Source: Phoronis australis
Taxonomy: Eukaryota > Animalia > Phoronida
Direction of reading: 5' to 3'
NCBI GenBank assembly: GCA_002633005.1
Contig: NMRA01000034.1
Span: forward strand, 407,696-471,695
DNA length: 64,000 bases
Positions 11,853 to 53,458 of this stretch are shown here, in pieces. The position numbers and the translations under genes were made by a program. The notes beneath the pieces are model-generated. The model did not search any database and was not told where the DNA came from. It saw only the letters and a program-made list of their open reading frames with translations. Numbering within the stretch: the stretch's first letter is position 1; the number at the start of each line of letters is the position of its first letter.

Positions 11853-12829
11853 TCATATCAATGAAGGAGTGGGAATGTTAGCAGCAAGCAAGTTTATGGA
11901 GGAGAGACGAATGTAGTTCTTGAGCGCGTCAGACTTCCAGCGACCCATACGCTGAATGGTGGAGTCTGGAATTTGGAGGGTAGCAGCGGAGGTGGCTGCA
12001 CCAATACGAAAATTATGAGATTGATAGCGTTGAGGATCGAGACCGACGCACCCGAGTACCAAGTTAAGCTGGCGAGTGAAGTAAGAGCGAGTTACGGGGG
12101 AACCATTAGGGAACTGGAAGAGAGGGCCGGAAGAGTGGTTGGAAAGAGTGGGGTAGTGTTGAAAGGGTTGAAACAGGGCAATGGGGACCGGTAGAACGGG
12201 GGGATAAAGAGAAGGATAGGGGTGTAATCGTGATGTTTGAAGTAGGAGATAGTGAGAGACATGGACGTAGAGGTGACTGAGACGTCAGAGACCTGGAGGA
12301 CAGAAATTGGGGGTGAGGCAGAGGTGGCGACAGTAAATTCGCTAACACGAAGGAAGGTGTGAAAGGCGGTGGAAAACCTAGCAGCACAGAGAGATGCGTG
12401 GAAGTGAGAGTTGAGAGCAGAGGGTAAGGCGTTGAGAAGGCGGTAAAGAATAGGTGTAGTTATTGGGAGTCGGGTGTCCACGGATGGCCGCGAATTGGAC
12501 ACCCCCTTCAGAATTTTCTTGACCAGAAAGGAGGAGGTAGGGTCAGGCAAGCAGTCCAGTTTATGAATGAAACCTATGGCAGAGACATAGGTAGAGATGG
12601 TGGATGCAGTTAAGCCAGACGAGAAGAGATGTGCTAGGTAAGAAGCTAAGGTCGATGTGGAGACAGGAAACACAGGCAAGGGGCATGCTGAGGATGAATG
12701 GTAATGGAGGAAATGTGAAAGGACGCGATGGTAAGTGGAGATAGTGGATGGAGCAAGGGACGCCCGGAGGAGCGAAGTCAGAACGTAAGGAGGTGCTTCT
12801 GAACTGTGGTCGGTGTTGGAGAGAGCCAT
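11853..12829 (-). pseudogene. Tyrosine recombinase (frameshifted)
   Basis: SLAPSTISTY N-terminus, FLRVSE (catalytic R), SHNFRIGAATSAA (HxxR), MGRWKSDALKNYIR (catalytic Y); split over ORFs 12092-12829 and 11853-12062. Confidence 0.9.
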
Positions 12830-13254
12830 GGAGCCATGGAAAAGGCATCTTGGAAAAGAAAGCGAGACAATTTATCGGCAATGAAATTAGTTTTGCCAGG
12901 AATGTGTTTAGCCTTGAAGTGGATATTATGGTGTAGGGTAGAGAGGATCAGGAGTCGGACGAGGCGCATAATGTTAGGGTCCTTAGAGGAAGTCTTATTG
13001 ATGATATGCACCACGGAATGGTTGTCGCACATGAAAAGAATACGATGGTTGGCAAGGTTAGGTCCCCAGATTTCTAAGGCAAGAACGATGGGGAAGAGCT
13101 CCTTGAAGGTGATGGGAAAATGAGAGATGGATGAGGGCGAAGGGCCAGAAAACCAATTATACCCGCAAACCGCGGCGAATCCCCCGTGGACCGAGGCCGA
13201 GTCAGTATACAGTTTGAGTGATTGAGAAGAGGTCCAATGCTCAAAAAGGAGCAT
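12778..13254 (-). CDS. DIRS/Ngaro RNase H domain (truncated pol)
   Basis: LYTDSAS, ITFKELFPIVLA..WG, CDNHSVV, HIPGKTNFIADKLSR: D-E-D-D catalytic set of DIRS-type RNase H. Confidence 0.9.
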   Translation of the reverse strand: MLLFEHWTSSQSLKLYTDSASVHGGFAAVCGYNWFSGPSPSSISHFPITFKELFPIVLALEIWGPNLANHRILFMCDNHSVVHIINKTSSKDPNIMRLVRLLILSTLHHNIHFKAKHIPGKTNFIADKLSRFLFQDAFSMAPWLSPTPTTVQKHLLTF

Positions 13255-14504
13255 GGATTTGCCATAGAAGGAGTGGAGGAATGTAAGCCAAGCGCGAATG
13301 TCAGCACGGGATTTATATTGAGAACTATTTCAGCTGCGCAATTATATGTCCCTGTGCAAGTTGGTTGAGGAGACGTCAATGGTGTCAGCCATTTAAATGA
13401 ACACTTGTGAGTAGAACAAGACACAAAATAATGGCACACTTTAATGAGTTTGGCAGCAGTTGTCAAGAGGATCTTAGACATCATTAACCTAAATAAGCAG
13501 TCTCGTTTATTCGTTATTTACAGTTTTTCATTTGAATGTATAAACTAAAAATGGTCACTACATTGAATGTAACCAAAGTAAACTAATTCTCTATTTTCGT
13601 ATTAAAAGAAACACTTTGAACAATCTTACTGTACACTTTATATGGATCCCAAAATGAGGCTGAAGCTAACCAAGGTGACCTTACAGCTTAGAAATACGCT
13701 GATGTCACAGTTTTCTAAACAATTCTTTTGTCATGGTAGAGGGCGTTTTCTTGAAACCATCATAATTGTGTTCGATCCCAGACTATGATTTGGCTATACA
13801 TGTTTAGACAAACGTTCCACACGTGCTTGGTTAGGAACATTTATGTTAACAGGTCAAATACACAATTGAGTCATATGACCGTAGTTGGGTATTGCTTCCG
13901 TTCCTAGAATCCCATGTACAGTAGTCTGCACCCTGCATGTCTCTTTTTATTCTATTTGTTGTGATAGTGTGGGTTGTGACCTACGACCACTTCAGATAGG
14001 GACTGGGACTAATTCATATGTGAGAGTGGAGATAAAGCCAAGAGAAATAGATAGGGAACATCAGTCCCAAGACAGCACCAAAATACCCCTCCAACATTAA
14101 AGCTCCGTCAATAAGAGAAGAGAAAATAACTATGCATGTACTCAGGGTACCTATAAATAAATGCTCTTCAATTAAGTTTGCTTAACATTAACTGAGTATG
14201 GAATCACTAATTGGTAATTCATTTGTGTTTTGTTAGTGCATGTTCTAAATCATCGAGGGTATTTGATTTATTTTCCGTAGTGTGGGAACCATTATGGTGT
14301 AAACTGTCAAAACTACTGTCTAAAGCACGACCTCCCTATTTTTTCGAAATTCCATAGTTAGATTGGGGTTTATGTCTCTGACGAAAACACGAAATCTATG
14401 TGTAGAAATGTTTACAAAAATAATTGCTAATTGAGGAGAATTTCAACAGCACTTGGCCAAAATATGTCCACAGTTAAATCAGGTAAGAGAATTGTGCTAC
14501 ATGA

Positions 14505-17091: not shown

Positions 17092-17554
17092 TTAAATCAG
17101 TTTTGGCCACAATAAGATCAAAAACCGGACAATCGCCGCACATTGCATATTGTTCATGTGATTAAAAAAGGTGTTGACTGAGCTCTTGGATGAAAACACA
17201 ACAAATGTATCATCCACATACCTACGATAAAATTGTGGTTTACAGTCCGGTGGACAACTAGCCAGAGCCTCAATCTCGAGATTGCACATGAAAATATTAG
17301 CTAACACTGGTCCCAGGGGTGAGCCCATGGCTACTCAGAGCTCTGTAACCCTGCAGCTATGGTGATGACCAGCTACTGACCATATTCTATGTACATGTAT
17401 CTCTCACTTCACTCTATGGATGTTACCTGAGCTGTATGTTGGCACTTGTTGTCCTAAATTGTTGTAAATATGATCCTGATGATGTCTTATGAAAAGACGA
17501 AACGTTGAATTGAACATGAACTTTTTTATTTGTGCTGCGATTGTCCGGTTTTTG
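17092..17554 (-). mobile_element. Internally deleted mini-Penelope (family 2)
   Basis: Reverse-complement match to 23527-23889 fused to 24879-24931; flanked by a 12-bp TSD AACTGAGATTAA (17080-17091 and 17555-17566). Confidence 0.88.
17472..17510 (+). ncRNA. Hammerhead ribozyme in inverted pLTR
   Basis: CTGATGA-T-GTCTT-ATGAA-AAGAC-GAAA-CGTT, identical to the motif at 24824-24854. Confidence 0.75.
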
Positions 17555-18039
17555 AACTGAGATTAAACTAGTAAAAACAGATCAAAGTCGTGTTTCAAAT
17601 GAAATATGTATACGAGAAAGATTACTGCCAAATTATAGTTATATATATATATATATAATTAAGAGTTAAGTAGTTCTGATGGACAAACGACAGGGTTGTC
17701 CAAAAAGCCTCACCTAAAAGCTGACAGGTTTTCAAAGACTTCAAGTTACACACTGCAACTAGCACAACAAGGCACAGTTATTATTATAAAAATCCCACAA
17801 CTGGTAAAAGACATGTGGTGAATCACTTCGCATGCACGCCTAGGAGATTACAAATTTTGGTAAACAACCAATATGTTTAATTAATTATTCACCAGCCAAT
17901 AAAATTTCATAAGGTTGTGTTTAACTAGACTAAGTATCTACAGCATCAAAAAATGTCACCAACATATATAGACGCTCTAAATCCACGGTCATCCATATCT
18001 ATACATTTATATATATGTGAAGTGCATGGGAAGTGATTC

Positions 18040-18739
18040 ACCATATATATTGAATTTGTTTTTAACAGTGTCATTAGTTATAAATCCTGTTTCAAATATT
18101 TAGGCTGTATTCTGGATCAACACCTTGACTTCAAAGACATGCTGTTAGTGGGGTGAGACTCGACCGGAAACAGATTTAAATTCAATGTGTTGCGTCTCTG
18201 GAACATATTAGTGACCACAGGTGATGATAGTTTACTGAAAAGGTATTTGTATGGGAGAACTCTGTTGGTAAAAATGGTTGGAAAGACAAAAATTTGTTTA
18301 ATATAATTGGCATGCAATCTTGTTTTCAAAATTTGACTACTTGTAACATAGCAGATGCTAGAAACAAACTATTTGAATACTCGAAACATGTTTGGGCTGA
18401 GTCTGTTGTAACAAATTCCAAGTTAAGAACCCTCATTTTATTTAAGCCCAATTTTTAATTGAGCTGTGCCAGTGTGTGAAGCTTAATTCATCTCGTTCCG
18501 AGCGACCTCTTTTCACTCAATTTATAGCATGAAATCTGACTTGGAAACTGGTCTTTACGTAAACACTCCTGTAAGTGAAAGACTTTGCTTGTGCTGTGAT
18601 TCTGATTCTGTGGAGGATGAGCTACATTTTGTGTTTGATTATTCTCTATAAAGCTCACGGAGGTCTATACATGTACTATTTAATAGTGTTTCACTACAAG
18701 TCCTGAAATTTGCAGATTTCAGAAGATTAGATACGTTAA
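18040..18739 (+). mobile_element. RTE-X-like LINE 3' fragment, part 1 (interrupted)
   Basis: Decayed frames give FKYLGCILDQHLDF, LWNIL and LETGLYVNTPVSERLCLCCDSDSVEDELHFVFD, homologous to ORF 45396-46217. Confidence 0.75.
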
Positions 18740-20185
18740 AGGAGCATGTCACCCAAAAAACAACCTAATTTGTATCAATTTAGATCGATTATTTCTACTC
18801 GATAACGGCACGTGCGGTTGCGTTACCTGACACCTGACGGCAGACGGAGGTGTTGAAATTATCCAATGACGTAATTGGTTTCACACGCAGTCTGTTCAGC
18901 AGTTCACAACACGGGTTACTGGTGTTAGCTTATCGCTTGAATTCATCGTTTAACACCAATAAATCATAAAACCCTTAAAATACACCGAGTTCTTATAAAA
19001 ACGTTTTGTTTTATTTCGCTGTTACGGATTTATTGGTATTTGGACACACCGTAGCCTACAGAGTTCGGTAGGCAAGGTCCGTAACAGGAGTTTGGGGTCT
19101 GTTCGGAGATTAATTCGAAGTACTTTTCAGTGAGATACAGACAGGAGAACCTAGATTTGTGTTATTTAGACAAAACGTTTGTTCTCCCGGCCAGTGGCTC
19201 GGAAACCGATCAGGCCCGTCGCGGCCGGCGGGACTGAAGACATCACGAACATAAACCAGCCAAAGTTGGAAACTAAGCTTCCAGTCAAGAAGATACTATA
19301 CTAGTGAGCCAAACAAGTAATGTTCCATGATTATGTTGGTGAATTAGCCACGAAACTGTAAATCTACTTACTCGATCGTCGGGGGCCGCGAATTCAGGTT
19401 CCACTTTGGCAACAGAGCCGTCAGGGTAGAAGTTGTACATTGAAAATCATTTGAATAATGTAAATGTAAATAAAGATTCCCCTAACACCTGACCGTAGGA
19501 TAGAAATCGAGTTGTTTCACAACAGTTTCTGTCAGCAAACACTGAATTAGAATGACCTCACACGGCCTTGGTGTCCCGTCAATTAAGTTTATTGCACCTA
19601 AAGCCGGAAACTCAGTGATTTATTCATTGCTGGCTTCTCAAATCATTTGCACTCACGAGCACTCCAAAGGCATTACAAATTGCATCTAATGAGACAGATC
19701 TTGTTTAAGATTTATATTGGCTAGGGTAGGAATGATTCATTTCGAAACAGAACGCTCAGTAATAAACGCCAACTTGGCAACATACATTATAGACAACAGA
19801 TTCGCAACTCCGGCATATTCTTACGTGATGAGCTGAACTCTCCTGACCTTTCTGGTGCAGTTTCCGGTTAGTGTATTTTGACGAGAAATACTTGCATCTA
19901 CTTTACTGTCCAAAACAAAAAATATTAATTTCGGCATTGAAACGCTTTTCAAAGTCCTTCAATAGTAGAAGTGATGGTATTGTGAGTACTTTTGGCAATG
20001 CTACTGGTAATTTATTACAAAATTCAAACTTCGGTGCCGACTGATTATGTCGTCTGCTTGCCCAATAGCAGCAGTTATCGGACAGTTTTTGATTTATGGT
20101 TCACATAGGCCTACTGAGAAAACTACGAAAGCATGTTTATAAATCAACATTCTCAAGTGAGCAGTTCTTCTAGGAAGTGTTGAGT

Positions 20186-20201
20186 GGCCCTTAAAAGGGC
20201 C
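20186..20201 (-). terminator. Histone-mRNA-type 3' stem-loop (distal, canonical)
   Basis: Minus strand CAACCAAC-GGCCCT-TTTA-AGGGCC-ACTCA, then purine-rich AGAAGAA starting ~14 nt after the stem (histone downstream element position). Confidence 0.75.
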
Positions 20202-20226
20202 GTTGGTTGTAGGTATAGCGTGAAAT

Positions 20227-20242
20227 GATTCTTAAAAGAACC
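20227..20242 (-). terminator. Histone-mRNA-type 3' stem-loop (proximal, one G-U pair)
   Basis: Minus strand TTCAAC-GGTTCT-TTTA-AGAATC-ATTTCA, 10 nt after the TGA at 20255-20253. Confidence 0.6.
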
Positions 20243-20252
20243 GTTGAATAAT

Positions 20253-20507
20253 TCAACATAAATCACACAGTATACCATGCTCACTCAAGTACTGAAGGTC
20301 CTCTTCATTCAAGTTTTCATCTGGGAAGGTTGGAAGAAAACAGAGGAGATGACAATATCGATGACAGTTGTAACACCTTATATAAATGTTACCGTTCTCC
20401 AACGTTATCACGAACCCTGCCTTTTTCAGTTCTTGTTCCTGTGTTCCTGGATTCAGAAGTAGCCCTGAACCATAGGGAAAAAAAGACATACTACGAAAAC
20501 GAATCAA
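20253..20507 (-). CDS. PHD-finger-like C-terminal segment within the Kolobok-like element
   Basis: CYNC-HRYC-H-LL-C ... CDLC* fits C-x2-C-x4-H-x2-C...C-x2-C, the last six ligands of a PHD finger; the first Cys pair is not evident; true start unknown. Confidence 0.55.
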   Translation of the reverse strand: MIRFRSMSFFPYGSGLLLNPGTQEQELKKAGFVITLENGNIYIRCYNCHRYCHLLCFLPTFPDENLNEEDLQYLSEHGILCDLC

Positions 20508-20976
20508 ATTTTGAAAATCATCGCCTTCGTGCGATTCCGTATTGCTGTCGCCAGACTGATGTTCCTCCCCAACATCAATGTCAAAAATCGACGTTACAAG
20601 TGATGGAAACTTGTGTCCTTTGTTTCTAACTTTTAACCCATTTTTTAAGAAAGTGGTGTACTGATTTTGTCTAACGTTTAAAGACTGAGCATAACTTTTG
20701 GTTTTTACAATGCATTAATTGTGTTGAATGCATTCATATTAGGTGGCTTCATTGAGTTGAACAGAAAATAAACTAAATGTAACACAATAAAATTTTGAAA
20801 ATAAATAGAACAGTAAAACAGGACTCCCTAAAAATCGAGCTGTTATCGAAAACTTTGCGCCATTGGTGATCTGATTGGTTCATGCATTTACGGCGGGAAA
20901 ATAATAGACCAAGTATCGTGCACGTGTGCATTGTAGCAACACTTTGTATCTTATTCTTATTTGGCCAATCTGTTGA

Positions 20977-21688
20977 TACAGTAAATTTCCTTATTTATCC
21001 CCATCCTGATTTGACTGCAACTTGAGCTAGTTGGGTTCTATCATATATTGAGTTGGCATTGGGACCCACATGGTGCTTACTCGAATGGGCTTCATTTTAC
21101 CAAGTATTTCAAATTGAGGAGAAGTTAATAAACAAAGCGGGTGATTATCATCGCCAGAATTTCATCATTAGTATCTTTTGTCGGGTGCTCAAATTTTCTG
21201 AGTCTAGGGATTGTCAGATTTGTAAGGTAGAAGTGTTTTGCTGCATTTCCATGTCTGTGGCGTTATTTATACCGGACCAAAATTAAAAAACAGACCTTTG
21301 TTTAAATCAGGAGCTGCACGATACACATTTATTAGACGTGCGTAGGCATTGCACTGGTCACTTGGAACCATTTTTATGGTTCATTAATATATAGTTAAAC
21401 TAAGCTGAGGAGCTTGAAACCTGATTCACGGCAATTTTTGACAGTGGTATTTTCTGAAAAATGCTCGGAAGTTGACAACAAAGTTTGATAGCAATGCACT
21501 GCAGTTTTGTAGAAACTCTGTTCATAGGTTACAGATGCGTCACAGAGCGTTACTTTGATGAATTCTAGCTTACGATTTCACCTGTTTCGGTGACCGGGTT
21601 TCAACCACTTTTGGGCTATAATAAGCACCCCCTTCCTGAAGCGGATTTTTCTAAGCACCCTGGCCGCTTATTAGGGCGCATACGGTAA
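20977..21688. mobile_element. Possible TA-flanked Tc1/mariner-type MITE nested in the Kolobok-like element
   Basis: Ends TACAGTAAATTTCCTTATT ... TTATTAGGGCGCATACGGTA; only weak TIR match. Confidence 0.3.
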
Positions 21689-22329
21689 TATTTCAGAAGA
21701 CCAATACTTAGTATCCTTTATGCACGGGACCCTTTTGTTACTTTAGGAGTGGGATTGGCTCATTATGTACCCTACAGGTGGCATAGGACTTTACAAAACT
21801 GGTTGAAGAATTTTGTTTTCGTCATAAACGTTCGTTTGAATGGCTTAAGTTTAGAAATGTTAGGACTTAAGGCGGAAATTTAAAAAAACATATGTCCGCT
21901 TACAAAAAATTTAACATTGAAGAATAAAAACAACCTTTACACCCCTCTGGTGTTCCTGCTCCATGTTTTCAAAGAAGTTGGTTGCATTTTCATAGAATGC
22001 AGTCGAGAGATTTTGTGCGGCATATATTCGACATGAAGGTTTTACCAACGTTCTATTTATTTGTAAACGAATGTGAATTTCTTGAAATCGCTGATCCAAA
22101 TCCTGGCCAAATGTGCGCATTCTGCTGAGACCAACCGTCAGATCAGGGCCAGCGAAGAGTAATTTGGTTAATTCGCTCACTAGGCTATGGCTGAACTTCC
22201 TCGTAAGGACAAGAGTTTACGAGTCACTACCTTTGGAAGAAATTTAGAGGATAATTTTCGTCAAAAAGTTTACCAGATAGTTTTCATCAAAAAGAAGAAA
22301 ACAAAAATGGATTTGTGAAGACAGGATTA

Positions 22330-22545
22330 AGTAGTAGAGTCTCTTAAAAACATTCATCTTCGAAGTGCCTAAGTTGCCTTGAACAAATGTATAAAGTCAT
22401 TGCTGAAACAACTGCCATTCACGTTGACACAAGAAGTAAGGTTTTCTTCCCACAGCCGATTATGGGGTCATCGGATGGTATGGAAGCTAATTCCTTTGCA
22501 TTTCGCGTGTGTGGCCGAACAACCGGCCACACAGTAGCCGACCAT
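22330..22545 (-). pseudogene. THAP domain remnant 2 (not in ORF track)
   Basis: Manual translation from ATG 22545: MVGYCVAGCSATHAKCKGISFHTIR*..LWEEN... then, after a frameshift, RHFEDECF. Confidence 0.65.
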
Positions 22546-22869
22546 GTTTAGCAGACGACGTACTTGCCAGAAATTGCACCAGAAAATTTAGCCAGGTGTC
22601 GCCAGTGAATAATGACGTAAGGGCTTGTGCGTAAGCTCACAGATTTCGTCCATTGAAAGTATACGGAGTTGGCAACTCGTAATCCCGACTTAGACGAGAG
22701 CTCATCCCGACGAAGACTTCGCAGGTGGATCGTTAAGTTTCACAGGCTATCAGTTCGAACCGGAATACAAAGAAATACTAGAGAGGCGACGTGAACAAGC
22801 TCAGACAACGGAACGTATGGATAGCTTTTGGTAAGCCAGCATTCGCCAGGCACTGTCGACGACTGCAGG

Positions 22870-23048
22870 CCATAGACACGGAGATGTTTCACGGCCTCAT
22901 ACTTGCTATTTACAGCATACTTTTCATTCTTCACTTCTGCGAGCCATTTTCTAAGCATTTCGAATTCTCGAGGAAGTCGAAAAATCGATATGCCCGCTTT
23001 CGTCGCAGCTGCATTGTTCGGACAAGCGGGAACGATGCACCGCAACAT
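22870..23048 (-). pseudogene. THAP domain remnant 1
   Basis: MLRCIVPACPNN...ISIFRLPREFEMLRKWLAEV...HLRV: C-x4-C, F-x-x-P and W of THAP; the CxxHF part is lost. Confidence 0.75.
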
Positions 23049-23220
23049 AGCGGCATTCACTCTGCAAATGAACTACTGACGTCGCCTCGTCGTTTCTCAC
23101 CTTCCTCACAGCTTAACGGGACACCTCTCCGCAAAGTTAGGTCGACCGTGTGCGAGGCGATGTGGATATAGACCGATTAAGACGGCAAAACAGACTAATT
23201 AAATAGGGTGGCATTTTTCT

Positions 23221-23429
23221 TTAAAACTGCTGTTTCAATATTTCCCTAAGCAGTTCGCCAAATATATCAAGTCTGCTTTTGAACGTAGAAACTGTTGCAT
23301 TTATGGTATAGCTGAGTTGTGTGACTACTATGCCCAACAGGACTGCGTTCTTATTTTTCTTACGAATGTTATACTTATAACCGTTTGAATTAATTGTATT
23401 TGCCACTATAATAAATAAATACAATACAA
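23221..23429 (+). mobile_element. RTE-X-like LINE 3' fragment, part 2 and tail
   Basis: LKLLFQYFPKQFAKYIKSAFERRN aligns with LPQIFQNNLKGLAKFIQDALQVRSN (46xxx); tail CACTATAATAAATAAATACA is shared with 46358-46377. Confidence 0.78.
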
Positions 23430-23704
23430 TATAGTGTCTATATATATAACGCGCTATTCTATATTTATGATCATGACCATGGATGATCTAGAGTGTCTAT
23501 ATCAGTAGCGCGCTATTCAATATTTTCAATTCAACGTTTCGTCTTTTCATAAGACATCATCAGGATCATATTTACAACAATTTAGGACAACAAGTGCCAA
23601 CATACAGCTCAGGTAACATCCATGGAGTGAAGTGAGAGATACATAGAATATGGTCAGTAGCTGGTCATCACCATAGCTGCAGGGTTACAGAGCTCTGAGT
23701 AGCC

Positions 23705-24673
23705 ATGGGTTCACCCCTGGGACCAGTGTTAGCTAATATTTTCCTGTGCAATCCCGAGATTGAGGCTCTGGCTAGTTGTCCACCGGACTGTAAACCACAA
23801 TTTTATCGTAGGTATGTGGATGATACATTTGTTGTGTTTTCATCCAAGAGCTCAGTCAACACCTTTTTTAGTCACATGATCAATATGCATCCGTCCATCA
23901 ACTTCACCATTGAATCTGAGCGCGAGTCGTGTTTACCTTTTCTAGATGTCTTGGTTAAACGTGATAATAGCACCGTTGTTATATCTGTGTATCGTAAGCC
24001 CAGTTTTTCTGAGCTCTATCTTAAATTTGATAGTTTTGTGCCTATCCAGTACAAGAGAGGTCTAGTCAATTGCTTGTTACACCGTGCCTGGAGAATCTGC
24101 TCCACCAATTTAAATTTTGATAGTGACGTAGCTATGATTTTCCAGTTATTGCGTTCCAATGGTTACCCTCTGAATTTTCTGAATAGCTGTAAAAGGAACT
24201 TTCTTTCAAAAATGAATGAGGCAGATAAGATAGCTGTTATTGGACCCGAGAAAAAGAAAGTTTTCTTTTCTCTTGGTTACACCGGGCCAAGTAGTATAAA
24301 ATTGAAACGCCAATTATCTCGCCTTATTCACTCCATAGACCCAGCAGTTGAACTGATTGTTGTTTTCAAACCCCTTCGGAAACTTTCCAATATCCTGTGT
24401 AAACTGAAGTCACCCACCCCTTTATTGAACAAGAGCAATGTTGTGTATAAGGTTGAATGTGACAACTGTAATGAATTCTATATAGGACTCACACAGAGAC
24501 GCCTCTGTGACAGGCTGAAAGAACATCACACCTCAGAGAAAAGTAACGTATATAGGCATTGTATTAGCTACAATCACCAAGCCAACTCTGTTAGTATTAT
24601 CTGCAGAGAACCCAATAAGGAGTTACTGTACATTAAAGAGTCAATTGGCCATTCAGAACCAGCATGCCACTGA
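23705..24673 (+). CDS. Penelope RT (motifs 4-7, thumb) plus GIY-YIG endonuclease, 5'-truncated
   Basis: MGSPLGPVLANIF, YRRYVDDTF, FTIESE, LPFLDV, SVYRKP, L..NGYP; NVVYKVECDNCNEFYIGLTQRRL..RLKEH, IKES. Confidence 0.93.
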   Translation: MGSPLGPVLANIFLCNPEIEALASCPPDCKPQFYRRYVDDTFVVFSSKSSVNTFFSHMINMHPSINFTIESERESCLPFLDVLVKRDNSTVVISVYRKPSFSELYLKFDSFVPIQYKRGLVNCLLHRAWRICSTNLNFDSDVAMIFQLLRSNGYPLNFLNSCKRNFLSKMNEADKIAVIGPEKKKVFFSLGYTGPSSIKLKRQLSRLIHSIDPAVELIVVFKPLRKLSNILCKLKSPTPLLNKSNVVYKVECDNCNEFYIGLTQRRLCDRLKEHHTSEKSNVYRHCISYNHQANSVSIICREPNKELLYIKESIGHSEPACH

Positions 24674-24819
24674 TTCTCTGAATAACATGCAGAGCTCTGT
24701 GGCCCTGCAGCTATGGTGATGACCAGCTACTGACCATATTCTATGTATCTCTCACTTCACTCTATGGATGTTACCTGAGCTGTATGTTGGCACTTGTTGT
24801 CCTAAATTGTTGTAAATAT

Positions 24820-24858
24820 GATCCTGATGATGTCTTATGAAAAGACGAAACGTTGAAT
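24820..24858 (+). ncRNA. Minimal hammerhead ribozyme (Penelope 3' pLTR)
   Basis: CTGATGA (24824-24830), stem II GTCTT/AAGAC, GAAA (24847-24850), palindromic ACGT in place of stem III; an inverted copy lies at ~23531-23569. Confidence 0.78.
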
Positions 24859-26255
24859 TGAACATGAACTTTTTTATTTGTGCGGCGATTGTCCGGTTTT
24901 TGATCTTATTGTGGCCAAAAACTGATTTAATTTATTCTATATTTTGGTCATGACCATGGATATAGAGTGTCTATACATGTAGTGTTCTATTTCACATTAT
25001 GGTCATGACCATTGATACAGAGTGTCTATACATAGCGTATCTATATCTATGGCCACGACAATCAGTATAACCAAAAAAATAGAAAATAGAACCTGTAATT
25101 CGTTTAACCACGGGGTGAGATGAACTCTTTATAGAATATTTTTTTCTATTTTGTTTTAATATGTCTTACAACTTGAAGCTTGTAATGCACCAAGGCCAGT
25201 CAATGAATGTATATTGTGTTTAATGAAATACCTTTAGGCAATCATTAGTTTCAACAGAATTAATAAAGTTTAACTCGTGGCAGTATTACGTAGCGTTTTA
25301 AGACACATGTTCATATTGACGTCATTCAGCATTGAATTGCAAAATCCAATGCTCCAACGCCAAGGATATTTGTCAAGTTTGATATATGTAACCCCCCTCT
25401 TCTTGCAATAGCTAACTACACATGGTTTTTACAAAGTTCTAATGTTTCAATTTATGTTTAGCAACTATAAGAGGCGAGACGTGATGTTATTACAAAAATT
25501 CATAAGCTGTAATAGAATTGCTGCAGGACAGGGGATTGAACTGGAACCATGTTGTACAACACTTCGGGGCGGCAGGTGGCGCCGTTGGATTATTAATGAA
25601 GATGCGTTAGCCTGACTTAAATGATTTTATTTAATATTTCTGATGCTAAAATTTTCAACTGGCCGATCATCACCGATTGTTGTGTCCATCCCCCTTCTGG
25701 AGAGGAGGCCGCACGAGACAAATCTCCCTCCGTCCTAGCTACATGTACGCTACTTAGGCTGTACACAGAAATTCGTACCCTGACTGTTGCGTACTTCGGT
25801 ATGCACTATACATGTACATTGTTCGTTACTAGTTCAAAGGCTTAGTTTTGACCCCTTATATTTACCGTCTATCTATATGTACTTGTACGTAACAAAATAG
25901 CTAGACATTGTGTACTCTTCGTCTTCGTCACTGTTTTAATCATATTTTCTAAATTTAGAATATGTAATGCTTATGTAAAAATCTTGCACTTGCATTTTGG
26001 TTGATGTGAATTCTTATGAGACTAATCATCGTCCACATATATCAGTCTGATCATCGTTTACAATCTTATTCTTAGAATTGTTTTTGGTCAGTGGCAAGAA
26101 CTCGTATAAATTACTGGTGAAAAAACTTAGATCTTATATTATACCAATCGCAAAATTAATATTAATTCAAGATCTTATAACATGTCATAATATTGGTAGA
26201 AATAGTCGAAATTAATCTCTTTTAAAGAATCATTTTGCTCGATTTTACTAACCAA

Positions 26256-41416: not shown

Positions 41417-41499
41417 TAGTACGGGTGGGACTTGAACCCACGCGGACATACGTCCATTGGAACTTAAGTCCAACGCCTTAACCACTCGGCCACCGTACT
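41417..41499 (-). tRNA. trnL-TAA: tRNA-Leu(UAA)
   Basis: AGTACGG/CCGTACT acceptor stem plus A73, D-arm TGGCCGAGTGGTTAAGGC, anticodon arm TTGGA-CTTAAGT-TCCAA, long variable arm, GGGTTCAAGTCCC T-arm, and a T6 Pol III terminator 8 nt downstream. Confidence 0.95.
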
Positions 41500-41595: not shown

Positions 41596-42500
41596 AGGGG
41601 GAGGGGGGAAAACGGGGCATTTGCCCTTCCTGGACCTCCTTATAGATGGACTCCTTTAAATGAAACATGGATGCTTAAAATTCACTGCAAAAATAACATT
41701 GATCGTGTGATTTCCAATTAGCTCCACCATGACGAATGAAAGGGTCTCCTATTTTATTGGGAGGGGGATACGAGGTAAGCGCTTGTTCCAGAGCCTCCCC
41801 GCCCCCGTTTCCTGGGAAGAACCCTTTGCCTCTCAGCGTAAAAACAGTACGCATCAACGGTGCGAACTGGGGTGGCAGCGGCTATCAGCCCTCCCTCAAA
41901 AACCCCGCCCCTGCAGCGCTTTTTTGGCCTAACTGTTTCGACGTTGAAATCAAAAGGTCCGTTCAGGCCTTTGATCCCCTGGCGCATGTGAACGCTGAAA
42001 GGCCCCATGCTGTAGTATTCCAACACAACTTTTGATAATCTATACTTNAGGGGGAGGGGGGCAAACGGGGCATTTGCCCGGCCTGGACCTCCTTATAGAT
42101 GGACTCCTTTAAATGAAACATGGATGCTTAAAATTCACTGCAAAAATAACATTAATCGTGTGATTTCCAATTAGCTCCACCATGACGAATGAAAGGGTCT
42201 CCTATTTTATTGGGAAGGGGATACGAGGTAAGCGCTTGTTCCAGAGCCTCCCCGCCCCCGTTTCCTGGGAAGAACCCTTTGCCTCTCAGCGTAAAAACAG
42301 TACGCATCAACGGTGCGAACTGGGGTGGCAGCGGCTATCAGCCCTCCCTCAAAAACCCCGCCCCTGCAGCGCTTTTTTGGCCTAACTGTTTCGACGTTGA
42401 AATCAAAAGGTCCGTTCAGGCCTTTGATCCCCTGGCGCATGTGAACGCTGAAAGGCCCCATGCTGTAGTATTCCAACACAACTTTTGATAATCTATACTT
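41596..42500 (+). repeat. 452-bp tandem duplication across a single N
   Basis: 41596-42047 and 42049-42500 differ at only a few bases and meet at an N (42048); probably an allele/assembly artefact. Confidence 0.85.
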
Positions 42501-42618: not shown

Positions 42619-43910
42619 TAATACCCAGTTGATGCTAAAAAGCCCAGTAGTTTGTTTTTTTCTTATGCGCAGTATATTTTTTCTTCTAATAAGTGTGTAA
42701 GTTTGACTTAGTAGATTTTAATTTTTGTGTAATGTGTAAATAAACATAAACATTTGGCTTTTTTGTGTTACGTCGTCTGACATCCCATTCAACGGCATGA
42801 TTGTATAATGGATCTCAACCAGCGTCTTTATGAGCATTATGTAATTATTTATTATTCAAAGCGCTATTTTTCACGATTCTTATCCTTTGAAACACACGTA
42901 ATGTAGCACCAATATTGAATGGGCTAATCGATTTTCTGATTAATAATTGTCAGATTCAAGTTGGGGGTGTGTAACATTTGTTAGATGGAGGTGAGAGTGA
43001 CTTGGATGGCTTAGTTAGTGATACTGATAATGATGAATAGGATTTCGTTCTCTAGAAACTGGATGGCGAGGATGCAAGCTCCGTCAGTGACGACGAACCA
43101 CTAGCGCGTATTATAAACAAGCCTGCACCGAGCACTAGTAGCAGCTTTTCAAGTGCTGGAACGAGGTGCTCGAACTTGGGGATGTTATTCACAGGTTCAA
43201 GTCATAAAGCACATTTTGATGGAGAGATTCTGTTCTGTCAACAAAGTTCACAAGCGGCATCACACCCAGAAGGTGTTATCTATACTTGATTTGGCACACT
43301 ATATCCGTTGTTGTTGTGAATGCAAGGTTGTTGTACCATAGACTATAGTACATGGACCGCAAACTCCGTATACTATCAATGGACGAAATCTATGCTCTTA
43401 CAGAAGCAATGACATCATTATTCACTAGCGACACCTGGCCAAATTATTTGGTTTTATTTCCGGCAAGTACGCGTTGTCTGCTAATTATAGTCAGCTGTTG
43501 TGTCGTTACAATCAGAATCTGAAACAAATAATTTAGGAGAGTGGCGCCTCCTCTATGATAGTATGGAAGAAAATGTCGGGGTTGCGAATCTCTTGTCTAT
43601 AATCTATGGTTGCACCAAAAGGAATTTCGTGCTCTTCAAAAGCCCGAAGGTGAGCTCATGAAGCTGAGAACTTTTCAAGCCGAGATTGCGACGTTGCTGA
43701 TCATGTACAACGCTTCCAAGCGAGGCCGGCCATCGTTGGATGAGGTTAAGCCGCCAAAACCTGAATCAGCAAAGATGACAAGAAAGGCAGTTGTTTCGTG
43801 TGACGTTAAATGTGATGGTATTGGTCACTGGCTCATAAAAGTTGCTAAAATAGGTCGTTGCATGTACTGTGTTGACGGCATTGCTGGAAATTCATTTAAA
43901 AACACTTAAC
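42619..43910 (+). mobile_element. piggyBac-like transposon remnant
   Basis: Acidic N-terminal remnant LLDGGESDLDGLVSDTDND (~42978) and C-terminal LRTFQAEIA..KRGRPS..DVKCDGIGHW..KIGRCMYC (43610-43909), typical of PGBD-type transposases; catalytic core deleted; ends uncertain. Confidence 0.7.
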
Positions 43911-50579: not shown

Positions 50580-53458
50580 CAAGGAGTGTAGTAGAGTAGA
50601 AGAGTTCACTCCGCCATTTTGCCATTCGCCGCAATGGTTACCGGTCGAAACACTAGCGTACCAAGCGTGAATAATCAACACTTAGTTAGGAGCACAGTCC
50701 GAACAAACACTGATAAATTCATACTTTAATGACATCCAACGTGCAATAAAATTACTGTGTGATTGAAAATGGTTAGAATACATAAACTAACATCCACTTA
50801 TAATCGAATGAGAACGAAAATGTGTATTTTAATCAATAATTGTATTTGTTTTTATTCTCTTGAAGCTCCCTTCAAAATCCATCATGGTTTTGTTTCATGT
50901 TTGAGTTCTTAACAAGGCAATTATCGTTCCTTATAACAGTTCATACCTCCATGGACTACATAATTTGAATGATTGCTCCTGGGGGTTCAGAGGGGAATTC
51001 CTCCCAGGTGCCAACTAAGGGAGTACCAGGCAAAAACCAGGTGGGCGCCAAATGGGTGTTGACCCCCTCCCAAGGGGGTTACATGGGAGGAGTGCTAAAC
51101 GGGTAAAAACCAATGGGGTATGCCACAAGGGAGTTGAGCCCCTCCCATCGTCACACATTTTGGTTGCTCCTCTGACCATTAATAAACATGTTGCTCCAGC
51201 TCACTGCTGGTTTCATCTCCACCCAACAATTTCCCATGTGTTCCCTATTCAATGCACCAGGATACTAGCAATGCGAACAATTGTTTTGTGCAGTGGGTGT
51301 TACACAAGTAAGAAGAAGAAACCAAAGCAATTCATCACTACCACAAAATCGTAATATAATTTTAGAACATTCCATTATTTCTTAGACATGCCAGTATAGG
51401 GTAAACTCGATTCCACTCTCCCAATATAATCGCCAACAGTTACAAGTCAGTTGCTAATCTGTAGAATAGCTCACAACTTACAAAACGAAGTAACATTGAG
51501 TATATCACTCATAACTAGTCCAAGTTCAAAATGTCATGACAAAGAATTAAGGTACTGAACAGCAATCAAAATATTCACTACCCACATAGCTTCATACAAA
51601 ACTTAATTAAAAAGAGTGACTTGGATTATAAAACCAAAATTTAATTTTACACATCCACTGTTCCTATTATCAATAACAGCAAGTATTTCAGGTAAGTTAA
51701 AGCCAGACCACAAGTCAGATCATATCTGTTACCTAGCCACAACTGGGGCTTAAATTAATCACAATCTCCAAAAACGTACACAATAGCCAACACATACACC
51801 AATACAACCTTGTCACTCTCTATTATTGGGGACAAATAAAACAACAAGAATAATAAATATTTTAAGTTGTATTGGGAATTTCAGGGTCACAGCTCTACAA
51901 ATAAATATTTCACAGAAGGAACCAGATGGGTTCCTTAATTACAAGAGATAACACACACATTTCCGATACCCAAAGTGTAACTGAGTATGGGATACTNGGC
52001 CAACAGGAAGCTGGAGAGAAAGAACAAACAGCGCAACCATCGGACTTGGTAGGAACTAACCAGCAGTTGGATATGAAGCATGAAGGGCTCTATAATGGTA
52101 TTTGCCCAAATAATAGGATTTATGTCAGAGTGCCATAAATCTCATTAATTCACTAGTAAACAACAACACTTTTCGCCACAGAAATGCGTTATAAATAAGG
52201 CTAAAAACTAATTTACACTCAGAGGTGTTTGTCATCGAGAAGTAAAATGATACGGATAGCTTGGGTTTAACAAAATTTCAGCCCACCATTCAGACTCAGA
52301 AAGATCCATCAGTTTCACTTTGGCTCTCTCCAAATCACAGGCTTAACCATTCATAAAATGTTTCAATCTGATCAACCTTAGTAAAATACGAAAACCAGAT
52401 TTTGACTAATTGTCCTCTCTACACGTGATGTTCCAGTACTTGCTTTGTGAGACGATAATCACAAATGCAAAAGCCTATTCCAGAGTTGGGGAACTTTTTG
52501 ACATCTTCATTTTTGGTGGATTCGGGACATCAAATATTGCTCGAGCACTCCATTCAATATTAGCTTGTTCTTCATTTGTCAACATGGACTCCTCGACGTA
52601 ATGAGAGCAAAACTTGCAGTTCTTGGACAAGCAGGCTGCATCTCTATTCATAAGGTCGGCTCCAACTAACAGCACTTGCACCTGAACAGAAATCAATGAG
52701 AGACTCAGGAACAAACCTCATACTCACTAGGTTCACAGAAGACTGGTAGCCTAGTACACTAAATTACACCACACTACAGAATTCCTGTCGTACTGTGATT
52801 GTGGTAGAGACAAAAGCGTCTTGGTGTCAACTGAAAAAATAGGACTCAAATGTCGGTCCACGGATATTTTAAGGGCCGCGCCCCTGCATCATTGGCATAT
52901 AGAATCAAGTTTTCAATGACGCACTGCTTAACTTAATTGGCCCAACTAGCACATTAAAATTATGTCGATTTCTTACCTTTTCACCGAGACCAACAAATTC
53001 TCTAACTTGACTCATGACAGACTTGAGGCCCTGTGGTTGTGAAATGGCCGTGTCACCAGTTATATTACCCACATCGTACGTTAATCATAGTGCTTCCGCC
53101 GGCAGCCCGGCTGTACAGTAGGCCTAGCTTGCTACACTGCAGCCAACAATGGCAACGGCAGGGGACTGCGATCAACTTGTCTAACAACTGTGAACAGAAC
53201 ACACAAAATGAAAGACAGTGTATCACATTATTGAATAACAGATAATCCTTACCTTTCTGGATCCTTAGGGAACCTAAAAATGACACGTCTGGGGTTTTCG
53301 TGGATGAATTCATGCAATTTATCGCACTGCAAAATGCGTCTTTCTTCATTGTTTTGGCGCTTCCTGGTTGACCGTTGCTTGTTCACCACTTGGCGGCGCT
53401 AGTAGTAGCGGTAACAGCGAACTCGCAAGTGAATTCTCCTACTCTACTACACTCCTTG
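50580..53458 (-). mobile_element. P-superfamily-like non-autonomous DNA transposon
   Basis: TIR CAAGGAGTGTAGTAGAGTAG / CTACTCTACTACACTCCTTG; perfect 7-bp TSD CTGTGTA; spliced THAP remnant at the right end. Confidence 0.82.
52475..53349 (-). pseudogene. Two-exon THAP domain remnant
   Basis: Exon 53349-53253 MKKDAFCSAINCMNS..VSF(frameshift)FPKDPE-AG|GTAAGG; exon from 52681 (TCTGTTCAG|G TGC AAG = R-C-K) with LSKNCKFCSHYVEESM..AIFDVPNPPK. Confidence 0.72.

Follow-up and report, generated by a model that had tools for sequence, protein, structure and literature searches.

Tandem histone-type stem-loops behind a PHD-like gene in a nested DNA transposon of Phoronis australis: a candidate case of histone-type 3′ ends on a mobile element

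Can a gene carried by a transposon end its message in the manner of a histone gene? This question arose at a locus of the phoronid Phoronis australis, in a stretch of 64,000 nucleotides (nt) from contig NMRA01000034.1 (assembly GCA_002633005.1, positions 407,696 to 471,695), hereafter the window. An earlier note had pointed to two tandem histone-type stem-loops past the stop codon of a minus-strand open reading frame (ORF) inside a transposon, and had suggested processing by SLBP and by the small nuclear ribonucleoprotein (snRNP) that contains U7. In the available parts of the literature (PMC5054213, PMC7026596, PMC4604434), no messages but those of histones are known with this type of end, and cross-linking and immunoprecipitation of SLBP in HeLa cells yielded no true non-histone target; the portions of PMC13525598 considered contain no exception to the histone-only rule. 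A literature search limited to titles and the openings of abstracts, with Repbase and supplements outside it, retrieved no transposon gene with a histone-type end. Nor did the literature searched describe this element directly. We found both hairpins at the locus and in the transposon family to which it belongs, and we assign a probability of roughly 0.5 to the reading that an accessory PHD-like gene of the transposon adopted an SLBP/U7-type end, with cleavage after the second hairpin in intact copies.

We first describe the sequence behind the stop codon (TGA, 20255 to 20253 on the minus strand). The sequence confirmed the two stem-loops (Table 1), both in sense orientation relative to the PHD-like ORF, and the predicted fold forms both of them. 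CAAC before the stem and A after it are common to the two, and hairpin 2 is directly followed by ACTCA. The Rfam Histone3 model (RF00032) matched 20206 to 20160 with 37.3 bits (gathering cut-off, 34; E = 2.7e-7), the only match in the 64 kb; hairpin 1 was not reported in this search of the window copy. Both hairpins keep G paired with C at stem position 2 as well as U at loop position 3, which are diagnostic according to the available part of a survey (bioRxiv 10.64898/2026.10.14.759114), and the distance of hairpin 2 from the stop (51 nt) falls within the range of 25 to 60 nt that the same part gives for histone genes. Downstream of stem 2, after a gap of 14 nt, the motif AGAAGAA (20171 to 20165, minus strand) opens a purine-rich tract. 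Allowing one mismatch at most, we find the 16-nt hairpin consensus two times in the window, in each case at this locus. Across 200 first-order Markov simulations it appeared 0.575 times per window (0.025 for an exact match) and never as a pair within 100 nt. Given the Rfam score and the absence of simulated pairs, a chance origin of the hairpin pair is very unlikely.

We then examined other copies by aligning public runs to 20100 to 20310. This gave 141 and 153 RNA reads (runs X8 and X9, about 18 to 19% of each run being read), 188 DNA contigs (X1), and 4 contigs (X6). The mismatch in stem 1 turned out to be private to the window copy. The pairing base at 20228 was present in 21/23 and 21/23 X8 reads, in 33/33 and 21/21 X9 reads, and in 46077 of 46100 of the DNA-contig depth. 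Since nearly all reads and contigs carry this base, the family has two fully paired hairpins. With the family base in place, two base pairs set the hairpins apart, stem pairs 3 and 4, in which both partners are exchanged (U-A to C-G). The stem-loop pair is thus present across the family. Among the variants listed (40 of the 95 in this interval), only one in the stems is supported by DNA; it lies at 20199 (0.4% of the depth) and keeps the consensus as a U-G pair. Summed contig depth ranged from 6,000 to 95,000 versus 25 to 71 for single contigs, which suggests very roughly hundreds of element copies, a sum of depths being no copy number. The spacer between the hairpins is about 16 nt longer in some copies. 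At 20131 to 20138, a junction separates the window copy and many others from longer family members and is likely an internal deletion. One contig of X6, a run under another organism label, covered 20131 to 20260 with three differences, and we set it aside as evidence of cross-species conservation for its thin depth of 2.3.

Next to the hairpins lies the PHD-like ORF. Its homologues begin at about 20579, where P0001 has a Met and the window has ATT; we therefore rejected the 153-amino-acid (aa) stop-to-stop frame as the gene. A search of 1.84 billion representatives with the ORF returned 7 matches at E ≤ 0.001, one of them spurious, and a profile search returned 14; P0004, an unrelated repetitive protein, was excluded from the alignments. 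The window ORF is 68% identical to P0001, 62% to P0002, and 36 to 39% to P0003, P0017, and P0025. These homologues form a family of stand-alone proteins of about 110 aa with a C4HC3 pattern in the alignment of intact members, and its named members are zebra mussel proteins (Dreissena polymorpha; KAH3730070.1, KAH3735093.1). P0003 matches Pfam PHD_NSD (27.7 bits; cut-off, 23.9), and the best fold matches of its structural model (predicted local distance difference test score, 72) are PHD fingers, with VIA Z up to 4.6 and a root mean square deviation of 3.1 over 68 residues; the best Foldseek E value was 0.13. A PHD-like fold of the family is thus weakly supported by modeling. A sequence search of solved structures gave nothing below E = 0.01, and we took an LSm4 match (E = 0.011) as chance. 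In viral contigs we found neither an ORF relative nor a sequence that matched a 20-nt hairpin pattern.

The earlier note had placed the gene in a TTAA-flanked Kolobok-like element. Such an element exists, and it is non-autonomous (Table 1). Loose read ends at 18736 had a flank agreement of 0.39 to 0.42 in runs X8 to X10, and an empty-site joint from 18723 to 23221, with a single TTAA, was carried by 12, 13, and 24 reads of these runs. The hairpin gene is not integral to it and sits in a nested insert, and the evidence does not support the hairpins as a Kolobok feature. We assign the gene to a separate element because copies of the Kolobok-like element occur without the interior 19781 to 22673 and because the insert has its own ends, its own target duplication, and a short derivative, a miniature inverted-repeat transposable element (MITE). 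The 7-bp duplication TTGGCAA stands at 19774 to 19780 and 22669 to 22675 (the heptamer occurs four times in 18700 to 23300, and only two insertion sites were seen for the nested element); the right tip of the window copy was apparently lost via a 5-nt microhomology. Varied flanks were seen in reads with loose ends before 19781 (142, 123, and 112; agreement, 0.45 to 0.53), and the loose ends behind 22673 (225, 229, and 288 reads) share a 22-nt tip with the relative at 43337 to 43608. A joint from 19781 to 22715 that skips the interior, the letters between not being known, was carried by 56, 43, and 40 reads; a single X5 contig and a single X9 read join 19773 to 22672, and 19874 is joined to 22529 in a short form. 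The MITE is 80% identical to 22529 to 22673 over 147 nt and 88% identical to 19781 to 19822 over 42 nt, and its 11-bp inverted ends match at 10/11 positions. The 7-bp duplication, the CAT ends, and the THAP-like remnant fit the P superfamily; as no transposase core was found, we call the nested element P-like and do not assign it as a member. The remnant had no Pfam match, either in its first piece or in the read-through frames, and gave no BLASTP alignment with the THAP domain of the outer element.

No single record spans the whole insert, 19781 to 22673. Higher RNA depth at 21303 to 21620, together with loose ends at 21399, points to another repeat nested within it. Because of these two observations and the junction at 20131 to 20138, the gene cassette could be one more layer of cargo in the nested element. 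As for the outer element, Pfam detected no transposase core, and its THAP remnant had no long relatives at E ≤ 0.1 among 43 candidates in a weak search. On the strand opposite this remnant (22694 to 22900, plus strand), we noticed a YQFEPEY stretch that may resemble the start of KolX-like proteins; no Pfam match to KolX or P2X7-tail remnants was found in the element.

Upstream of the ORF, about 270 to 320 nt before its presumed start, we found a promoter-like cluster of two E2F-like sites with two CCAAT boxes between them. The cluster is the only one in the window and was present in 2 of 300 Markov simulations, the motif set having been chosen post hoc. It would be compatible with S-phase expression. 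Between the cluster and the ORF, one X5 contig skips 171 nt (20670 to 20840); its ends are not canonical splice sites, and the gap may be an intron or a deletion.

TABLE 1 Features of the locus and of the related short element, in window coordinates
Feature	Position	Strand	Basis or remarks
Outer Kolobok-like non-autonomous element	18740-23220	-	AG...CT ends, imperfect inverted repeats of ~15 bp, TTAA at 18736-18739 and 23221-23224
Nested P-superfamily-like element with hairpin gene, 2.9 kb	19781-22673	-	CAT...ATG ends; right tip lost in window copy
Junction at which window copy, like many others, departs from longer family members	20131-20138		Loose ends conserved to either side, in RNA as in DNA runs, beside spanning reads
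Purine-rich tract, candidate histone downstream element	20171-20162	-	8/10 purines, from +15 nt behind stem 2
Histone-type stem-loop 2, GGCCCT-TTTA-AGGGCC	20201-20186	-	Sequence and Rfam RF00032; 51 nt past stop, 25 nt past hairpin 1
Histone-type stem-loop 1, GGTTCT-TTTA-AGAATC	20242-20227	-	Sequence; begins 10 nt past stop TGA
PHD-like zinc-finger ORF, ~108 aa, broken in window copy	20253-20579	-	Homology to P0001, P0002, P0003, P0017, P0025
Promoter-like cluster, two E2F-like sites flanking two CCAAT boxes	20854-20900	-	Motif search
THAP-like remnant, frameshifted, C-x4-C ... W ... C..HF	22347-22545	-	Read by eye; near 5′ end of nested element
THAP-domain remnant of outer element	22743-23048	-	Pfam PF05485, 27.4 bits (cut-off, 23.9), E = 6e-6
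Short derivative (MITE), 272 bp, CATAGA ends	43337-43608	+	Resembles nested element at both of its ends; flanked by GTTGTAC / GTTGCAC, a 7-bp duplication alike at 6/7 bases

We propose that the PHD-like gene and the two hairpins belong to a DNA transposon with many copies, likely a P-superfamily one, which is nested here in a Kolobok-like element. Intact copies would make a short non-polyadenylated message that would be bound by SLBP and cut by the U7 snRNP after hairpin 2. We place the cut behind this hairpin because it has the right distance from the stop and is followed by the purine-rich tract; the predicted site, 5 nt past stem 2 and after 20181, is taken from the known histone pathway. 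Hairpin 1 may offer SLBP an additional site, or it may be an older duplicate. In favor of this reading we count the Rfam score, the absence of simulated pairs, the full pairing of both stems in the family with their compensated differences, the U-G variant at 20199, the varying spacer, and the promoter-like cluster. The accessory ORF may have moved between transposon types and, in the lineage seen in the window, may have acquired a histone-type end and an E2F/CCAAT-type promoter and come to stand alone as a gene. Its protein could then be restricted to S phase, or its message stored in eggs, at times when cut-and-paste transposition can increase the number of copies, and its PHD-like finger might act on chromatin. 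The broader version of this proposal, in which the transposon family coupled a chromatin-reader gene both to the SLBP/U7 pathway and to an E2F/CCAAT promoter, its protein appearing in S phase only or being stored in eggs, is one we put forward more tentatively.

Several results weigh against cleavage after hairpin 2 in a working gene. In the RNA runs X8 and X9, whose library selection is recorded as "unspecified," read starts and ends did not pile up in 20100 to 20310, and we saw no 3′ end near 20181, where a non-polyadenylated message could escape such libraries. Sense depth, the strand being assigned by the usual stranded convention, was similar upstream and downstream of the predicted cut (25.6 versus 24.4 in X8; 36.0 versus 44.2 in X9), and antisense depth in the interval was similar to sense depth. 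The X8 and X9 reads look like host transcripts running through copies of the element. They also carry A-to-G changes at 13 places (150 versus 15 by read direction), including the four loop bases 20193 to 20196, which are absent from the DNA run, itself made from another sample; these clusters look like hyper-editing of double-stranded repeat RNA. A beginning shared by six molecules at 20212 in X8 was rejected as a clipping artefact, as it falls at the spacer indel and was not repeated in a second alignment of the reads. Because library selection is unspecified and there is no histone-gene control, the RNA result does not refute cleavage; it neither supports nor refutes it. On the side of the gene, reading the frames against P0001 revealed a +1 insertion and an 8-nt duplication that leave a short out-of-frame stretch and remove the first Cys pair: the window copy is a pseudogene. 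Damage is likewise apparent in P0001 and P0002, its closest homologues, no intact copy of the hairpin gene was seen among the reads and contigs examined, and the 12 read-through frames of 18740 to 22600 contained no transposase core. The hairpins themselves bring further difficulties. Hairpin 1 is nearer the stop (10 nt) than is usual for histone genes, outside 25 to 60 nt, and has no purine-rich tract behind its stem, and in copies with the long spacer hairpin 2 would sit about 67 nt past the stop. No significant sign of selection on the stems or on the ORF emerged: 0/4 polymorphic DNA sites fall within the 32 hairpin bases (P = 0.52, not significant), and 6/20 listed ORF variants in the shared frame are synonymous versus 19% expected (P = 0.17; the list is biased).

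Relatives of the ORF outside P. australis add to this side. We scanned metagenomes and found three homologous loci (L001 to L003) among 116 candidate stretches. None of them (0/3) had a Histone3 match at E ≤ 10, and the consensus hairpin, with up to 3 mismatches allowed, was absent within 150 nt of the stop. In 3/3 the ORF stop is followed within 1 to 2 nt by the ATG of a long ORF (L001:2120-2868, L002:1-2462, and L003:3073-3755), so that, with no hairpin and the long ORF adjoining, the small ORF has no separate 3′ end there. From this arrangement, a stop-restart transcript with two ORFs in a DNA transposon is possible. The long ORF of L002 is transposase-like (Pfam DUF7869) and belongs to a type that we take to be Sola-like. 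In favor of our reading, L003 has similar promoter sites: at a distance of about 1.1 kb upstream of its homologous ORF stand an E2F-like site and CCAAT boxes. Because all three loci are without hairpins, the hairpins are a trait of the transposon lineage and not of the PHD-like protein family. The hairpin-less homologues fit a history in which the accessory gene passed to another carrier and acquired a 3′ end of its own.

The same loci, in which homologous ORFs do without hairpins, bring in another explanation, that the hairpins are captured cargo, stemming from a fragment of a histone-type 3′ end or from a host gene ending this way, which was taken up once, duplicated, and then spread passively, unused. 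The family is young (in X1, 100/188 contigs are alike to 95% or more, and variation of at least 5% is confined to 6 places, of which two are private to the window copy), so its uniform hairpins need no selection; the missing RNA end, the broken ORF, and the layered patchwork of the element are also what passive cargo would leave. What makes this account less likely in our view is the detail of the arrangement. The hairpins are placed exactly, just past the stop and in sense orientation, they differ from each other by fully compensated pairs, and a matching cell-cycle-type promoter cluster lies upstream. A captured histone gene might moreover have left coding remnants, and 12 read-through frames of 18740 to 22600 (the insert and the left host arm) contained no histone Pfam match at E ≤ 1, in agreement with the statement in the earlier note that no histone coding sequence lies nearby and against a fragment of a histone pseudogene.

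A different use of the hairpins would have SLBP bind them without a U7 cut, the message being polyadenylated downstream and the tandem hairpins serving storage, translation, or decay control. Two hairpins exceed what cleavage needs, hairpin 1 is without a purine-rich tract, sense reads pass through both, and an AATAAA at 20016 lies on the same strand of the window copy. AGAAGAA, too, contains neither the AAAGAG core of the mouse downstream element nor AAAGA, to which the conserved UCUUU box of U7 is complementary. We nevertheless rate this account as quite improbable: the sense reads may come from host transcripts reading through copies, AATAAA is common here (230 AATAAA/ATTAAA sites in the window), and the tract behind hairpin 2 lies at the expected distance. 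Short palindromes are common in DNA transposons, and the element holds others, but that the resemblance is accidental or that the hairpins are palindromic sites acting at the DNA level is hardly credible, given the Rfam E value, the 0 pairs in 200 simulations, and a strand-specific loop and flanks that match the histone consensus only in the sense direction of the ORF.

If an SLBP/U7-type end is indeed used, this gene would be the first case of a mobile element using a pathway regarded as exclusive to histones. A cut-and-paste element could thereby time its activity to DNA replication or to early embryos, surveys based on poly(A) would miss a class of transposon transcripts, and one way in which non-histone genes of invertebrates came by histone-type ends could be through transposons. 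The prediction is sharp, RNA ends being expected at one base, 5 nt past the second stem.

The window contains other features apart from this element. By eye, ORF pieces at 11853 to 13329 (minus strand) look like parts of a DIRS-type retrotransposon, namely its RNase H and its tyrosine recombinase. Around the element, in inverted orientation, lie two or three pieces of a reverse-transcriptase-like repeat (17092 to 17558 and 23522 to 24920), which are rearranged and nearly identical. A tRNA gene (41417 to 41499, minus strand; Rfam, 64 bits; anticodon UAA by eye) adjoins a direct repeat with 453-bp spacing (41596 to 42348). Finally, inverted repeats of 31 bp stand 2.8 kb apart at 50580 to 53458 and mark a possible further DNA transposon.

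We then compared the locus with known systems. The outer element resembles the Kolobok superfamily (Kol0, KolobokP, D, E, and H) in its TTAA, its RR...YY ends, and its THAP domain, as far as the available parts of PMC6004289 and PMC9587614 describe them; unlike in that superfamily, the hairpin gene belongs to a nested insert and not to the Kolobok-like body. The accessory proteins of Kolobok elements given in the part of PMC9587614 considered are KolX, nucleases, and RecQ, and the words "PHD," "histone," and "stem" have 0 occurrences in its main text. The nested element shares with the P superfamily (P, Galileo, 1360, and zebrafish Pdre) a 7-bp duplication, as in Galileo (PMC4168063, in part), ends that start with CAT, as in Pdre2 (PMC10983969, in part), a THAP-like remnant near one end, and short internally deleted derivatives. 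It differs in that no transposase core was detected in the window copy and in its accessory PHD-like gene with hairpins, which the available parts of these two papers do not mention.

The small PHD-like ORFs of L001 to L003 and of D. polymorpha belong to the same C4HC3 family of about 110 aa, with 36 to 39% identity in the three proteins compared; unlike in the present transposon family, the ORF stop at L001 to L003 adjoins the ATG of a long ORF and no hairpin intervenes. Relative to the histone mRNA 3′ end (RF00032), the locus differs in having a non-histone ORF, a DNA transposon as carrier, two hairpins, and a cleavage that is only predicted. It shares with that end a stem-loop of 16 nt that has AC-rich flanks, G-C at position 2, and U in position 3 of the loop, and a stem that lies 51 nt past the stop; the purine-rich tract behind it is a candidate for the downstream element.

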